Shown here one piece after another: positions 2,574 through 26,992 of a stretch of 64,000 nucleotides of DNA (position 1 is the stretch's first letter; every line of letters begins with the position of its first letter). A program made the translations under genes and the position numbers. The notes beneath the pieces are model-generated. The model saw only the letters and a program-made list of their open reading frames with translations, had not been told where the DNA came from and ran no database searches. This DNA is from a virus, in IMG/VR virus record IMGVR_UViG_3300032163_000003, positions 46,070 through 110,069 of that record; one strand, written 5' to 3'.

Positions 2574-3445
2574 TAGAAGGTTGATCCTCGGAGAGCTCTA
2601 ATCATGCGCGTTGGTACAACTAACAATCTTTCTGCTATGTCATCCAACATCAGCTTTGCGTTCAAGTTTCCCTCCTTTGAGCTGAATTTTGCAATGGCTA
2701 AAAACAGATTCCAGTTTGTTATTTGGCTTCCTGCGCAGAGCTCGGAAAGAAAGGCAGATATACTATTCCGTCTATTCTTACCGGCTTTTTCTTCTATCAT
2801 CGCAAGGGACTTTAAGATTTCTTCATCAGTAAGTATTTTAGAACTTGTCTCCGAAATTATGTCGACAATATTCTCATTGAAGATCTCAAAGAACGATCCG
2901 ATGACACCACTTAAAACTGTTTTACTTTTTGATGTGTGAATCTGATGGTAGGAACCCATCTTTTGTTTAAAGGTTACACGATACTCCCCCATTATGGAGA
3001 ATCCAAAAGATACTCTTGCAACACCTGTGCCATCATAGCTATTTTGCACAGTCAATTGTGGGACAACATCTCCGTCTCTTGGGGTAGTAACAACGTTTTC
3101 AATTTCAATTTCATGCCAAAAATGAGTAAACCGAGGAGCGTTTAAAAAAGTTCTTTCTCTTAAAATTGGTTTTCCAGTTCCAACAATTGACTCTTTGATC
3201 ATGCATACTACAATGTCATTACCAATGAACTTATAATCTTCTGATACAAATCCACCCATTCTTCCGAACGTTTGAGAAGTTGGTGAAGCAAAAACAGTGA
3301 AGTAGGGGATGGCTGTAAACTTGTCTGCGTCTTCAATGTATGACCCAATGTATCGAACTGCGCCATACTTGTCCTCATACAAAAAGGTTCTGTTGTTGAT
3401 TTTCTTTAATCCATCTCTCACAGCTCGTTGTTCAAATGTTTCCAT
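2573..3445 (-). CDS. DUF932-like protein
   Basis: QLTVQNSYDGT motif; likely start METFEQ with GGAGG SD. Confidence 0.45.
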   Translation of the reverse strand: METFEQRAVRDGLKKINNRTFLYEDKYGAVRYIGSYIEDADKFTAIPYFTVFASPTSQTFGRMGGFVSEDYKFIGNDIVVCMIKESIVGTGKPILRERTFLNAPRFTHFWHEIEIENVVTTPRDGDVVPQLTVQNSYDGTGVARVSFGFSIMGEYRVTFKQKMGSYHQIHTSKSKTVLSGVIGSFFEIFNENIVDIISETSSKILTDEEILKSLAMIEEKAGKNRRNSISAFLSELCAGSQITNWNLFLAIAKFSSKEGNLNAKLMLDDIAERLLVVPTRMIRALRGSTF

Positions 3446-6518: not shown

Positions 6519-7261
6519 ATTTTTCTCCTAATAAAAATTATTTATCTTTTCAATTAGAAATATATATATAGAATTTACAATCCATACCTTACGAACTTAA
6601 AATCTTCTTTTAAAATTTCTACCATCTGGTCATAGTCGCCAAATTTATAGAAATCTTTTACAACTGGATCCTTGATTCCACCGTATGACAACATATAGTC
6701 TGCGTCAAGAACAGTTTCAATTACTTCGTCTTTTTTCATGACTACTTTGTTAATATTTTTTCCCTCTGCTTCAGCAGTACATTGAAGACAATCATACGCA
6801 ATTGTTTGCCACGTTGCTTGTGCTGCTCTTTGAAATTCTTTTATTTGTTTTGGTGTAAGATTAAACCTTTTTCTTTCTTTCATTTTTCTCCTTTATACTT
6901 TTTAAGTCTTTAAGAGTTTCTTCAACAACAGTAATAATTTTACTTGGTCTAGTTTTTATAACTCTTCCTTTGACTTTACATTCTTTGACTTGATCCCAAA
7001 GGTGACTTCCAATAATACCAAGATCTTTCGCAGTTCCTTTTGCAACTTCTTTATACTTTCCTTTTTTAATCCGTAAACTTACAGTCCATACGTTTTCAGC
7101 GTTAATATTCCAGTCACCTTTTTCCAAAAACGCGCAGTATCCATTTCTCATTTTTCGTTTACCTTTTCGAATGGACCAGTATGGACAATTACCTTTGTCA
7201 CTATAACAATAGGATCCGCGGGGTATCAGTCTCTTATCTTTTTTCATTTTTTGATTTCCTT

Positions 7262-7897
7262 TTATAAATACCTGTAGCGGTATTTTCTCATAAATTTTCT
7301 GCCGTTTCCAGAGTTTTTAAACCTATAGTTTTTTGTTAGTGAGTGACAGTTTGGACAAACTAGTTCTAAATTTTCAGGACGATTGTGTTTCCAGATTCCA
7401 TCTTTGTGATGTAACTCAATAGGAATTGTTTTATAATATGGATTTTCTTTATTCCATCCACATTTCATACATTTGTTTCCATAAGTTTCAATAAAGTATC
7501 GTTTTATATGACTAGACGCTCCACCCTTCTTAGTTCCAGTTATCTTACCTTCAAACCACTGTTTAATAAAAACTTTGTATTTATAATCGTTAAAACAGTG
7601 AAGATTACAAAATTTCTTTTTACATGAGAGTTGTTTTCCACAAGATAAACAGTTTAAGAACTTTCTTTTTATTACGCCAGAACCGCCCAACGATTTACTT
7701 ATTTTTACTCTAGTTTCTCTTTTATGTTTTCTTCCTGGTGTATTGAATTTTGCAGCGCAAATTCTACTGCAGAACTTTGGATTTTTTGTTTCTTTTTTGC
7801 ATAACAAACATTTTCTGGTAGAGGTGCTTGGGCTCGAACCAAGAACCTGTTTCTTATAAGGAAACTGCTCTACCACCGTTGAGCTACACCTCCTCAT
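7262..7897 (-). CDS. HNH homing endonuclease with Zn-finger repeats; 5' end contains tRNA-Ile(UAU)
   Basis: ELHHKDG...N..ENLELVCPNCH; ATG at 7897 preceded by GGGAG. Confidence 0.85.
   Translation of the reverse strand: MRRCSSTVVEQFPYKKQVLGSSPSTSTRKCLLCKKETKNPKFCSRICAAKFNTPGRKHKRETRVKISKSLGGSGVIKRKFLNCLSCGKQLSCKKKFCNLHCFNDYKYKVFIKQWFEGKITGTKKGGASSHIKRYFIETYGNKCMKCGWNKENPYYKTIPIELHHKDGIWKHNRPENLELVCPNCHSLTKNYRFKNSGNGRKFMRKYRYRYL
7816..7893 (-). tRNA. tRNA-Ile(UAU)
   Basis: GGAGGTG/CACCTCT acceptor, GTTTC-CT TAT AA-GAAAC, TTCGA T-loop, ACCA. Confidence 0.9.
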
Positions 7898-7921
7898 TTT
7901 AGATCTCCCTTCTAATAGTCT

Positions 7922-8272
7922 TTAACCAAGGTTGTTTACATCTACGGCAAGTTTTTTGTTTGGAAGAACAACAGCTCTCATGTCATCTACGAATAATGTT
8001 CCGTGAACAATTTGTGCTATTTTTATTGTTTTTCTTTTTAGCTTCCTAAGATCTTCAAACTTTATATCTATTCCATCTAGACTTTGCCAAAAGTATTTTA
8101 ATAGTTCTCCTTTTGACACTCCATATTCTCCTTCTGCATCAAAATATGGATCGTCCTCAAATATCCAATTTATAACTTTCGTTCCATTTTTGACGATAGC
8201 AAGAGATTTGTAACATGGCTCAGAACAAATAGATTTTATTATACAGTTGTTACATATTTTAAGGTATTTCAT
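7922..8272 (-). CDS. CX2CX5CX3C-motif family protein
   Basis: CNNCIIKSICSEPC. Confidence 0.5.
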   Translation of the reverse strand: MKYLKICNNCIIKSICSEPCYKSLAIVKNGTKVINWIFEDDPYFDAEGEYGVSKGELLKYFWQSLDGIDIKFEDLRKLKRKTIKIAQIVHGTLFVDDMRAVVLPNKKLAVDVNNLG

Positions 8273-8462
8273 CTTCCGGAATCTCCTTCTGAAATATCTC
8301 TTCTATCCAAATGATTTTCCCCTCTCCTTGACATCTTGGACAATCACATCCTTCACAGCCAACACAACCCAAAGCCTCGGTTTTTGGCCTTAACTTTCCA
8401 GTACCTTTGCACATAGGGCAATCAATCATTCCTTCTTGTTTTTCAGTCATAAAAATCTCCAA
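8259..8462 (-). CDS. CxxCxGxG/DW family protein
   Basis: CPMCKGTG...CPRCQGEGKIIWI. Confidence 0.6.
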   Translation of the reverse strand: MEIFMTEKQEGMIDCPMCKGTGKLRPKTEALGCVGCEGCDCPRCQGEGKIIWIEEIFQKEIPEDEIP

Positions 8463-8728
8463 TCCATATAATCACTCGGTTCTTCAATTCTAACATTAAA
8501 AAAATTTCTATCGTAATATAGTTTTAATGTTTTTGGAATTATCATTGATTTTTTAACTCCAACTACTTTTTCAACCCAGTCAATTTCTTGATGTCCACGA
8601 CATTGTTTGCATAATATAATTTCTAAATCCACTTCATTAAGAATCCTAAATCCTCGTCCATTACATCTATTACACTTTTCCTTTATTCTCAATTTCTTCA
8701 TCGGTTCCTCGATTAGAAAGTATATCAT
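8447..8728 (-). CDS. CxxCxGxG/DW family protein
   Basis: CNRCNGRG...CKQCRGHQEIDWVEKVVG. Confidence 0.6.
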   Translation of the reverse strand: MIYFLIEEPMKKLRIKEKCNRCNGRGFRILNEVDLEIILCKQCRGHQEIDWVEKVVGVKKSMIIPKTLKLYYDRNFFNVRIEEPSDYMDWRFL

Positions 8729-22542: not shown

Positions 22543-23292
22543 TTAGTTTTCTCCTTTTGTTTGGTCCATCCCACAGACATTTTCTTTATCCTCTAGCAAC
22601 TTTTTAATATCTTCTTTTACTTGATCTAGAGTTGGAAATTTCTGAAAAATATTGTATCTTAAGAACTTCCATCCCTCTTCTTCAATTTCTTGTTGTCTTC
22701 TCTTATCGTATTCTTTTCGATCTTCTTTGTAAAAATGATACCAACCATCAAATTCTAAAATAATTCCTAAACTAGAATCAGCTATATCTACAACATAATT
22801 TCTTTTTCCTTTTCCTCTATAAATAGGAAATTTATGAATTGGTCGTGGAAGAAGTGTACAAGTCATATAGAAAAGTTCGTTTTCTGGTTTAGAATCATCT
22901 GAAATACAAGAACACATATAGACCGCTTGCCAATCCTTCATTCGTTTTGATTGTCTCTTCCTGCTTTCTTTCGTTACGAAACTAGCTGTGTAACTCGCTC
23001 CTCCATTTTTCATATATTCTGATTGAATTCTACATTCCTCGTGAGTTTCTTTAGTTCTACCAGTTATTTTTTCTGCTTGAATTCTTCTTCCTTCATGGTT
23101 CTCTTTTGTTCTTCCTATAAGTTTTTCTGCTTGTTTCTTTCGTCCTTCGTTATTTTCTTTCGTTCTTCCTCTTTTTGGGTCTCCTGTTCTTTTCTTTATT
23201 ACTGGACAAGAATTCTGACTCTCACTACAACATCGTTTGCCATTCTTTAACGTATGCTTCCCTTCTTGTCCACAACCATATTCACAAAGCAT
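22543..23292 (-). CDS. Homing-type endonuclease: CxYGCG module + GRTKE repeats + Vsr/DUF559-like domain
   Basis: MLCEYGCGQEG; three GRTKE..E repeats; LEFDGWYH...GWKFLRY. Confidence 0.75.
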   Translation of the reverse strand: MLCEYGCGQEGKHTLKNGKRCCSESQNSCPVIKKRTGDPKRGRTKENNEGRKKQAEKLIGRTKENHEGRRIQAEKITGRTKETHEECRIQSEYMKNGGASYTASFVTKESRKRQSKRMKDWQAVYMCSCISDDSKPENELFYMTCTLLPRPIHKFPIYRGKGKRNYVVDIADSSLGIILEFDGWYHFYKEDRKEYDKRRQQEIEEEGWKFLRYNIFQKFPTLDQVKEDIKKLLEDKENVCGMDQTKGEN

Positions 23293-23603: not shown

Positions 23604-23678
23604 AGGCGGCAGAGGGACTCGAACCCCCGATGTCGGTTTTGCAGACCGATGCTTTAAAACCACCTTAGCTATACCGCC
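23604..23678 (-). tRNA. tRNA-Cys(GCA)
   Basis: TCGGT-CT GCA AA-ACCGA; U73; CCA not encoded. Confidence 0.9.
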
Positions 23679-24804: not shown

Positions 24805-25383
24805 CTATTTTTCTCGTAGGTTAAATTTATAATTGGGTGTTAGCGAGTGACAGTTTGGGCACAGAAGTTCTAAATTTCCTTCTTTCGAATTAAATTTGTT
24901 TCCATCAATATGATGAAGATCTATTGGAACTTTCCCTGTAAATTGATTGATTTCTTCCCACCCGCATTTAGAACATTTGTTCCTGTGTTTTTCAATCATG
25001 TATCTTTTAACCATTCCGCTTGTACCATTTTTTACAGTTCCTGAAATTTCTCCGCTCAACCACTTTTTTATAAAATCATTATATCTAAATATTTCGTAAC
25101 ACTCATAACTACAAAATTTTGGATAGCTTATTTCTTTTCCGCAATTTTTACAGAAATACTTTCCTTTTATTTTATTTGGTTTCTTACTATTGGAATAGAT
25201 TCCTGCGCATGACCTATTACAAAAGTTACTAGTTTTACTTATTACTTTCTTTCCACAGTGTAGACAAAATCTTTCATTAATAGGATTTAAAACGCAGAAT
25301 TTTTCGTGAGATCTTATAGTTTGTGGGGTAGTTTTCCTTCCACAAAATCTACATACTGATTTAATTTTTGGTTGAGCTCTCAT
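24805..25383 (-). CDS. HNH homing endonuclease, ending 4 nt before tRNA-Asn
   Basis: IDLHHIDGN..N....NLELLCPNCH. Confidence 0.85.
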   Translation of the reverse strand: MRAQPKIKSVCRFCGRKTTPQTIRSHEKFCVLNPINERFCLHCGKKVISKTSNFCNRSCAGIYSNSKKPNKIKGKYFCKNCGKEISYPKFCSYECYEIFRYNDFIKKWLSGEISGTVKNGTSGMVKRYMIEKHRNKCSKCGWEEINQFTGKVPIDLHHIDGNKFNSKEGNLELLCPNCHSLTPNYKFNLREK

Positions 25384-26104: not shown

Positions 26105-26182
26105 TGGTAGCCCATGCAGGACTCGAACCTGCGACCTAGGACTTAGAAGGACCTTGCTCTATTCCACCTGAGCTAATGGGTC
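26105..26182 (-). tRNA. tRNA-Arg(UCU), with stem mismatches
   Basis: AGGTC-CT TCT AA-GTCCT; acceptor GACCCAT/ATGGGCT; ACCA. Confidence 0.8.
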
Positions 26183-26863
26183 TTTTCTATGAGTCTTTAA
26201 GTTAAACTTATAGTTCTTAGTTAAAGAATGATGATTTGGACACAAAAGTTCTAAATTTTCTTCTATTGAACTAAATCTATTTCCATCTATATGATGTAGT
26301 TCTAGAGGAATTAGATTAGTAAATTGATTTACTTCTGACCATCCACATACAGAACATTTATTGTTGTATTTTTTTAGGATGTACTTCCTTATAAGAGTAG
26401 AAGCACCACCTGATGTATTTCCAGAAATTTTTCCGTCTTTCCATTTACTTATATATTCTTTATATTTATACTCACTATGACAAAAACCATTGCAAAACTG
26501 TTTCATCCACTTAATAACTTTCCCGCAATTTTTACAGTAGCTTATTCTAAAAAATTTTGGTATTCTATTTTTGTTGTTATAGAAAGCAGCACATGTACTA
26601 TTACAAAATTTTTTATTGTGGTTTATTTCCTTGTTACACCATAGGCAATATTCTATCGTACATGTTTTTTTATGAAGAGGAAAAGCCATTGATCCAACTG
26701 TCTTATTACACACCGGACATAAAACTCTAGGTTTGGATTTAAGCGAGATTGAACTTCGATTTCTTTTTCCTGGACATTTATTAATACTATTACTACAACA
26801 TCGTTTCTTTCCAATTTTAAACTTTGATTCTTGACCACATCCGTATTCGCATAACATATACAT
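26159..26863 (-). CDS. HNH homing endonuclease with CxYGCG module; stop inside tRNA-Arg D-loop
   Basis: MLCEYGCGQES; LELHHIDGN...NLELLCPNHH; ends DPLAQVE*. Confidence 0.85.
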   Translation of the reverse strand: MYMLCEYGCGQESKFKIGKKRCCSNSINKCPGKRNRSSISLKSKPRVLCPVCNKTVGSMAFPLHKKTCTIEYCLWCNKEINHNKKFCNSTCAAFYNNKNRIPKFFRISYCKNCGKVIKWMKQFCNGFCHSEYKYKEYISKWKDGKISGNTSGGASTLIRKYILKKYNNKCSVCGWSEVNQFTNLIPLELHHIDGNRFSSIEENLELLCPNHHSLTKNYKFNLKTHRKDPLAQVE

Positions 26864-26914: not shown

Positions 26915-26992
26915 TGGTCGGGGCGAAGAGATTTGAACTCTCGACTTGCAGTTTAAAAGACTGCTACTCTAAACCATCTGAGTTACGCCCCA
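26915..26992 (-). tRNA. tRNA-Lys(UUU)
   Basis: GCAGT-CT TTT AA-ACTGC; ACCA. Confidence 0.9.

Follow-up and report, generated by a model that had tools for sequence, protein, structure and literature searches.

A candidate HNH homing-endonuclease gene with a complete tRNA-Ile gene in frame at its 5′ end in a phage genome

We describe a phage locus at which a free-standing HNH homing-endonuclease gene probably has its reading frame wrapped around a complete tRNA-Ile(UAU) gene. In the reading that we favour, to which we assign a probability of about 60%, translation would start at an ATG at position 7897, the tRNA would be read through, and tRNA maturation and nuclease synthesis would compete for the same transcript. 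The anatomy of the unit can be seen directly in the sequences compared, as can the boundaries of the apparent cassette, against one HNH-less relative, and the recurrence of the layout in other members of the nuclease family, one of them as DNA and others as predicted proteins.

The window, by which we mean the whole stretch of 64,000 nucleotides analysed here, covers positions 46070-110069 of an IMG/VR virus record of 110 kb, whose completeness of ~35% (CheckV) suggests a large phage. Its GC content is ~33% and its best DNA matches are sediment metagenomes. Nearly all genes of the window, together with all 22 tRNA genes detected by ARAGORN, are carried on the minus strand.

Layout of the locus

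From the ATG at 7897, ORF 7262..7897 remains open for 211 codons until the TAA at 7264-7262, and it encloses the whole tRNA-Ile gene (Table 1). The initial annotation of this DNA had placed an entire tRNA-Ile gene inside the 5′ end of an HNH gene, behind a GGGAG-N7-ATG start and read without a stop into the first zinc module; sequence, ARAGORN and Rfam bear out each element of this description at its place. It had also claimed that no in-frame start equipped with a Shine-Dalgarno (SD) motif lies between the CCA and the first Cys codon, and in fact there is no in-frame start of any kind in that interval. The in-frame starts of the ORF are the ATG at 7897, a GTG at 7876 and a TTG at 7807, the latter coming one codon past the first Cys codon (7810-7808). 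With a whole tRNA in frame and free of stops, in an ORF that has no alternative start, ORF 7262..7897 shows nesting of the selB/selC type, which is discussed below. The leader, the tRNA and the nuclease together form a block of ~660 nt (7921..7262).

The 116-aa gene upstream of this block has no match in Pfam or among the PHROGs. In a minus-strand scan, no promoter-like or terminator-like site above the shuffled background was found between the leader, the tRNA and the HNH gene. Compared with the 5′ regions of the three paralogous genes, the leader shows no similarity, and no tRNA-Ile fragments marking a split target were found in the window.

Table 1. Features of the nested locus, in window coordinates
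Feature	Coordinates	Strand	Evidence or remark
116-aa gene, no assigned function	7922..8272	-	TAA stop at 7924-7922, in the same frame as the HNH ORF
24-nt leader with Shine-Dalgarno GGGAG (7909-7905), 7 nt ahead of the ATG	7898..7921	-	sequence
Proposed nuclease start codon ATG, one A between ATG and tRNA	7895..7897	-	sequence, ORF listing
tRNA-Ile(UAU), 78 nt, CCA encoded	7816..7893	-	ARAGORN and Rfam
In-frame GTG within the tRNA D loop, possible secondary start	7874..7876	-	10-12 nt past the acceptor-stem bases GGAGG
TTG, start picked by the automatic gene caller (181-aa product P0001); no SD	7805..7807	-	drops Cys30
First four-Cys module (C30, C33, C43, C47)	7757..7810	-	alignment A1, predicted structure
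Second four-Cys module (C83, C86, C97, C101)	7595..7651	-	invariant columns of A1
HNH catalytic core (C143, C146, H164, N176, C181, C184, H185)	7343..7471	-	invariant in A1; PHROG 1271
HNH nuclease body with TAA stop (7264-7262)	7262..7815	-	ORF; comparison with L085
128-aa downstream gene with its own SD and ATG	6861..7247	-	ORF; L085 homolog at 86% DNA identity

Start signals and the role of chance

An open frame across a tRNA is by itself unremarkable: across the 22 tRNAs of the window, 21 of the 66 same-strand frames are free of stops (p ~0.32). It is the combination of features at this locus that chance does not explain. The SD and ATG of the leader sit in the single open frame of the tRNA-Ile. 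On the minus strand, 35% of the first ATGs of long ORFs are preceded by the strict SD motif, as against 4.5% of ATGs as a whole, an enrichment of ~8-fold at real starts, and the spacer ahead of the tRNA resembles the start region of an ordinary gene. Other protein genes downstream of tRNAs in the window have their SD and ATG 10-30 nt past the tRNA, the nested HNH gene being the sole exception among the 22 tRNAs. The observation of the initial annotation that other ORF/tRNA overlaps have their own downstream SD and ATG holds for the two cases that it had named, tRNA-Met with ORF 9433.. and tRNA-His with ORF 23972...

The only AUG near the 3′-processed end of the tRNA (7811-7809) is out of frame and its frame stops after 15 codons. 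Initiation at this ATG followed by a +1 frameshift was considered and rejected, given the absence of a slippery site, the stop after 15 codons and the loss of both first Cys residues.

The nested tRNA-Ile(UAU)

The tRNA-Ile has the anticodon TAT and an encoded CCA (ARAGORN), and it scores 64.1 bits against Rfam RF00005, for which the gathering score is 29, over the full model (1-71). Its first pair is G1-U72 and the cloverleaf is its minimum-energy fold. A pseudo-tRNA acting purely as coding sequence was considered and rejected on the high Rfam score. Paired changes in the acceptor stem and in the anticodon stem separate the window allele from that of the HNH-less relative described below, which fits a tRNA kept under structural constraint. 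It is the single tRNA-Ile(UAU) copy in the 110-kb record, and AUA codons are used at 25.6 per 1000, both of which would indirectly favour a tRNA that is matured and aminoacylated. The 23-mer of its anticodon arm has zero exact matches in IMG/VR.

Within the ORF, the tRNA makes up codons 2-28, with codon 28 opening on the last A of the CCA. In the centroid fold both the SD and the AUG are unpaired and the helix begins at +2 after the AUG; the SD is not paired in a stable local structure, as it would be in a hairpin that sequesters the ribosome binding site.

The HNH nuclease

The part of the protein from residue 28 to residue 211 falls within a very large HNH family, of which a library of 1.84 billion proteins contains 8,932 representatives at E values up to 0.001. 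The protein matches PHROG 1271 “HNH endonuclease” with an E value of 3.9e-18 and does not reach Pfam HNH and HNH_3, with 17.5 bits against cut-offs of 21.4 and 24.8. Structural and PDB matches, including those of a Foldseek search against the PDB, were to HNH enzymes only and all weak, among them McrA and PacI. The nuclease is, by these comparisons, a putative member of a divergent HNH subfamily. It has the catalytic His, Asn and His with two flanking CxxC pairs of HNH (His-Me finger) enzymes, and in an alignment with 27 relatives (A1) the residues C143, C146, H164, N176, C181, C184 and H185 are invariant.

In the first zinc module, C33, C43 and C47 are likewise invariant in A1, and C30 is found in all rows save that of P0001, the TTG-started automatic call of the same gene. 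Homology to other HNH members starts at residue 27-30, and in many minimal homologs Met1 aligns with residue 27 of the query, exactly at the end of the tRNA. The AlphaFold model (mean pLDDT 81) is disordered over residues 1-24 and confidently folded from about residue 28, reaching a pLDDT of 91 for residues 31-40; the N-terminus encoded by the tRNA would thus be a floppy tail. Because C30 is nearly invariant and its module is folded in the model, a product started at the TTG would be without a conserved zinc ligand.

All 184 codons that follow the tRNA are intact, and they include all residues that are invariant in the family. The closest relatives, P0002 and a paralog within the window (26159..26863), have an N-terminal domain of ~70 aa that is absent from the nested HNH protein, from which it follows that a 5′ truncation occurred in the lineage of the latter. 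Elsewhere in the window, a 249-aa gene (22543-23292) has a Cys-rich N-terminal domain in common with this paralog and with P0002 and differs from them in its C-terminal half, which points to domain shuffling among the nuclease-like genes of the phage.

A relative without the nuclease and polymorphism of the locus

A 1.8-kb metagenome contig, L085, was reached via the downstream neighbour gene. It is collinear with the window: genes homologous to those at 8670.., 8259.. and 7922.. are followed by a tRNA-Ile(UAU), and this in turn by a homolog of 6861..7247. The homolog of the 116-aa gene (L085, 613..969) has 88% DNA identity overall and 94% over its last 120 nt. Beyond its stop, the gap to the tRNA is 6 nt, as against 28 nt in the window, and the leader with its SD and ATG is absent. 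After the tRNA, 24 nt lead directly to the ATG of the next gene with no HNH gene in between, and similarity to the window restarts within ~3 nt of the HNH stop codon, which marks the apparent right end of an inserted block. The HNH gene is therefore present in one genome and missing in the other between the same two genes, the pattern expected of a free-standing homing endonuclease gene.

The flanking genes of L085 and the window have 82-94% DNA identity, and the two tRNA-Ile alleles are only 72.7% identical, the whole acceptor stem having been exchanged. tRNAs normally evolve slower than adjoining small phage genes. Since here the tRNA is less alike than its flanks, we read the block 7921..7262 as one incoming unit: compared with this one HNH-less relative, the leader, tRNA and HNH gene look like a single cassette that replaced the resident tRNA-Ile. 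The low identity of the tRNA between flanks of higher identity fits co-conversion, with import of the tRNA alongside the nuclease, as far as one pair of genomes can indicate.

Contigs from three other sediment studies agree with a locus that is polymorphic. An X3 contig joins 7250 to 8263, X2 and X4 contigs hold HNH copies at 96-98% identity, and other contigs have the leader region at ~95% identity. The contigs from other samples break at the tRNA and none of them spans both tRNA and HNH gene; close relatives of the two neighbour genes were not found in IMG/VR. A 93-aa zinc-finger gene upstream (8447-8728) is absent from L085 and skipped by an X2 contig (joint 8435 to 8713) and is, judging from these contigs, another small indel gene in this variable stretch.

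The HNH family in tRNA arrays and recurrence of the layout

Members of this HNH family are commonly found among tRNA genes. Of the 60 IMG/VR loci with an HNH relative (L004-L063), 58 have same-strand tRNA genes no more than 3 kb away, and the gene next to the relative is often a tRNA-Thr(UGU). Genes for tRNA-Thr, or the sequences flanking them, may be what the family targets. Within the window itself, one HNH copy (24805..25383) ends 4 nt before a tRNA-Asn and another (26159..26863) ends 24 nt inside a tRNA-Arg. Nearly every gene at the ~115 distinct family loci examined in IMG/VR is equipped with its own ATG, in many cases 0-8 nt from an upstream tRNA. The combination of a gene without its own start and a closed tRNA frame was found in 0 of these ~115 loci.

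The nested layout is repeated, with another tRNA, on a 231-kb phage contig (L046). There, a tRNA-Thr(UGU) at 2975..3046 (Rfam 52.6 bits) is followed, 2 nt past its end and with no start in between, by the first Cys codon at 3049; there is an ATG 19 nt ahead of the tRNA, and the HNH ORF is intact over 230 aa. No SD is visible at this upstream ATG. About 70 nt upstream of the nested tRNA-Thr, the same contig has a 35-nt 5′ tRNA fragment (2871-2905) comprising the acceptor strand, the D arm and the start of the anticodon stem, and the fragment and the nested tRNA-Thr have an 8-nt upstream flank in common. The fragment seems to be what is left of a resident tRNA gene that an incoming cassette disrupted, and a fragment of this kind would be expected where a tRNA gene has taken up an insertion.

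Similar cases are met among proteins. P0298 begins with Met and two residues, followed by 25 tRNA-like residues and then the first Cys, and its residues 6-28 match the frame-0 translation of tRNA-Thr(UGU) genes with an E value of 2e-6. P0338 is 67% identical to P0298 over its full length and has the same layout without gaps. P0236 and P0337 look similar, with a weak tRNA match (E about 0.02). These four are known only as predicted proteins, and cases of this kind are biased towards open frames. Neither L046 nor P0298 has close relatives in IMG/VR, and P0337 could not be found in the genome collection. In a FastTree phylogeny of 270 members the nested cases do not group together; the tree is poorly supported and too weak for counting origins. 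In P0337 (NCBI, 240 aa), the ORF reaches back beyond the tRNA-like stretch and there encodes ~35 Cys-rich residues with two CxxC pairs, which would place that stretch between two protein domains.

Several otherwise intact HNH genes of the family have in-frame stops at conserved positions, for example where Trp or Gln is expected (L062:3001-3558, L070:3001-3378, and also L058 and L052), which suggests a reassigned stop codon rather than pseudogenes.

Alternative explanations

The HNH gene could instead be a 5′-truncated, untranslated or decaying homing endonuclease which lost its N-terminal domain and its start on landing against the tRNA, the open frame and the SD with its ATG being coincidental or leftovers of the donor. 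This would agree with the chance-level openness of the tRNA frame (p ~0.32), with the extra N-terminal domain of ~70 aa in the nearest relatives, and with the high plasticity of the locus among relatives; moreover, homing-endonuclease genes often decay and several loci of this family contain in-frame stops. We nevertheless regard it as unlikely, as the 184 codons after the tRNA are intact with all invariant family residues retained, a ~96% identical copy persists in an independent sediment sample from 2025, and P0298 and P0338, which are 67% identical, have both kept their layout. Neither does decay account for an SD and ATG leader that is specific to the HNH-bearing allele and that lies in the one open frame of the tRNA.

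That specific leader would also be left unexplained if translation started after the tRNA, at the TTG at 7807 or at an unconventional codon, perhaps on an mRNA that is nearly leaderless after 3′ processing of the tRNA. The product would then be a nuclease of 181 aa without the first Cys, and the tRNA would be a mere upstream neighbour. The automatic gene caller did choose this start (P0001), some family members have a single zinc module, so that a crippled first module might be tolerated, and relatives with an ATG 0-2 nt past a tRNA suggest that processed leaderless mRNAs exist in the family. Leaderless initiation, however, normally requires a 5′ AUG, and the only one close to the processed end, at 7811-7809, is in the wrong frame; no SD precedes the TTG in a genome that otherwise uses SD and ATG, and Cys30 would be lost, all of which makes such a start quite improbable. 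Even less credit can be given to a variant of our main reading, initiation at the in-frame GTG at 7876 in the D loop, with GGAGG of the acceptor stem as SD and both start signals within the tRNA. The 5′ strand of the acceptor stem is a good match to the SD consensus, with the GTG 10-12 nt downstream. This is a long spacing, however, the cloverleaf has both elements base-paired, and an ATG with an ideal spacing of 7 nt is available in unpaired RNA just upstream, which leaves the GTG a highly improbable start.

Proposed mechanism

In the favoured reading, with translation from the ATG at 7897 and read-through of the tRNA, a mobile unit consisting of the 24-nt leader with SD and ATG, a tRNA-Ile allele and the nuclease body would have displaced the resident tRNA-Ile of the phage. 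On a polycistronic minus-strand transcript, a ribosome would initiate at the ATG, perhaps aided by a ribosome that terminates 24 nt upstream. It would melt the 78-nt tRNA and read 26 codons into a disordered N-terminal tail, followed by the two zinc modules and the HNH core, and an intact first zinc module would be attainable only by such read-through. If the cloverleaf folds first, its acceptor stem, beginning 2 nt after the AUG, would hinder initiation; the need to initiate 2 nt before a stable cloverleaf in fact counts against our main reading.

RNase P cuts at tRNA position 1. At this locus the cut would fall between 7894 and 7893 and would sever the start codon from the body of the gene, and after 3′ processing the RNA would offer only the out-of-frame AUG at 7811-7809. 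Because the start codon would be severed in this way, tRNA maturation and nuclease synthesis are expected to compete on each transcript. Both the use of the ATG and the competition with RNase P are what we infer from this arrangement. A transcript would give rise either to the nuclease, possibly with the tRNA afterwards, or to the tRNA alone, the reverse order being impossible. The outcome would be a low output of nuclease and a selfish gene that is physically tied to a useful tRNA. The nuclease would probably target HNH-less tRNA alleles or their 3′ flank.

The upstream start with in-frame read-through, as put forward in the initial annotation, has gained from the comparisons: the leader is found only in the HNH allele, the TTG start would lose a zinc ligand, and the layout recurs. 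The annotation had further proposed that maturation and translation exclude each other and so throttle a toxic enzyme. Such exclusion would follow from the geometry and the regulatory reading is plausible, but it would be better described as kinetic competition than as strict exclusion, because translation of a transcript could precede its processing. The mobile cassette, in which a foreign tRNA allele would have arrived together with the nuclease, is an aspect that fits the comparison with L085 and adds to that earlier reading.

Tentatively, this may be extended to a subset of the HNH family, although we consider the extension possible rather than probable. This subset may have evolved a mobile “tRNA-in-ORF” cassette whose nuclease cuts tRNA alleles that lack it and which brings, within its own frame, a functional replacement tRNA immune to cleavage. 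Loss of the nuclease would then mean loss of the tRNA, and processing by RNase P would act as an irreversible switch confining nuclease synthesis to the first moments of the transcript.

Comparison with known systems

The idea of a nested tRNA is already known: a bioinformatic study predicted that in Alphaproteobacteria the selB ORF contains a nested tRNA-Sec gene, selC (Mukai 2021, PMC8124441). The author termed it the first nested tRNA in a bacterial ORF and hypothesized that either the protein or the tRNA is made (PMC8124441). Both arrangements have a complete tRNA in frame inside a protein ORF, with tRNA processing and the full-length protein as alternatives. As read here, our case differs in its 5′ position, in the selfish nature of the host gene, in the removal of the start and in its mobility. 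Whereas the tRNA of selB lies at the 3′ end of the gene as a C-terminal extension, that of the nested HNH gene lies at the 5′ end, directly past the start codon, so that processing removes the stop in the former and would remove the start codon in the latter. selB is a cellular housekeeping gene functionally linked to its tRNA, whereas the gene in the window is a selfish phage nuclease, which, unlike selB, seems to move as one unit with its tRNA.

Homing endonucleases in phage tRNA clusters have a precedent in SegB of T4, which recognises a tRNA T-arm sequence (PMC2330249). Like the window gene, SegB is a free-standing endonuclease among phage tRNAs that some related phages have and others lack; in the case of SegB, the tRNA genes beside it are co-converted (PMC2330249). 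Unlike the window HNH, it is a GIY-YIG enzyme encoded between tRNA genes, with its own start and no tRNA in frame.

Low expression by means of RNA structure is also established for such genes, since translation of I-TevI, I-TevII, I-TevIII, segB and mobE is held low by an RNA hairpin at the start, and in an I-TevI hairpin mutant the splicing of the td intron is reduced, translation disturbing the folding of the host RNA (PMC2988022). The likeness would lie in a stable RNA structure at the start and in the interference between translation and the folding of a functional RNA. However, those systems use a dedicated hairpin that sequesters the SD, whereas the SD and AUG of the nested HNH gene are predicted to be free. 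Here the structure is a tRNA that starts 2 nt past the AUG and is itself a substrate for cleavage, so that repression would be irreversible.

In mitochondria, tRNAs punctuate transcripts, their excision setting the ends of mRNAs, and coding and tRNA sequence can overlap, a point that PMC8124441 also cites. These overlaps are of a few nt, or else processing creates the mRNA, whereas processing at the nested HNH locus would destroy the start of the mRNA.

If the reading of the locus is confirmed, a single stretch of RNA would serve both as translated coding sequence and as functional tRNA, and RNase P would decide which of the two prevails. It would represent a new means for homing endonucleases to limit their own expression and to hitch themselves to a beneficial gene, as well as a route for swapping phage tRNA alleles between genomes. 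The idea of nested tRNAs has so far been based on one bioinformatic report, that on selB. In practical terms, annotation pipelines that mask tRNAs ahead of gene calling will mis-start or miss nested genes, as happened with the TTG call of P0001.

Other gene borders at tRNAs

In several unrelated phage contigs, the ATG of an HNH family gene lies 0-2 nt past the 3′ end of a tRNA, leaving no room for an SD (L008:2997-2998; L068:2803-2806; L121:1352-1354; L125:1424-1426; L130:1439-1441). At such a distance, 3′ processing would leave an mRNA that starts at the AUG or 1-2 nt before it. This suggests that leaderless mRNAs are made by tRNA excision, as in mitochondria, at several loci of the family.

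Genes that end inside tRNAs are found in the window as well. The stop of the HNH paralog falls inside a tRNA-Arg (26159-26182), and those of two other genes fall inside a tRNA-Cys and a tRNA-Lys (23669-23678 and 26983-26992), in each case within the first 10-24 nt of the next tRNA. Cleavage by RNase P would leave mRNAs that end inside these tRNAs without a stop codon. With the stops of upstream genes lying inside tRNAs, translation of unprocessed tRNA precursors seems to be routine in this phage.
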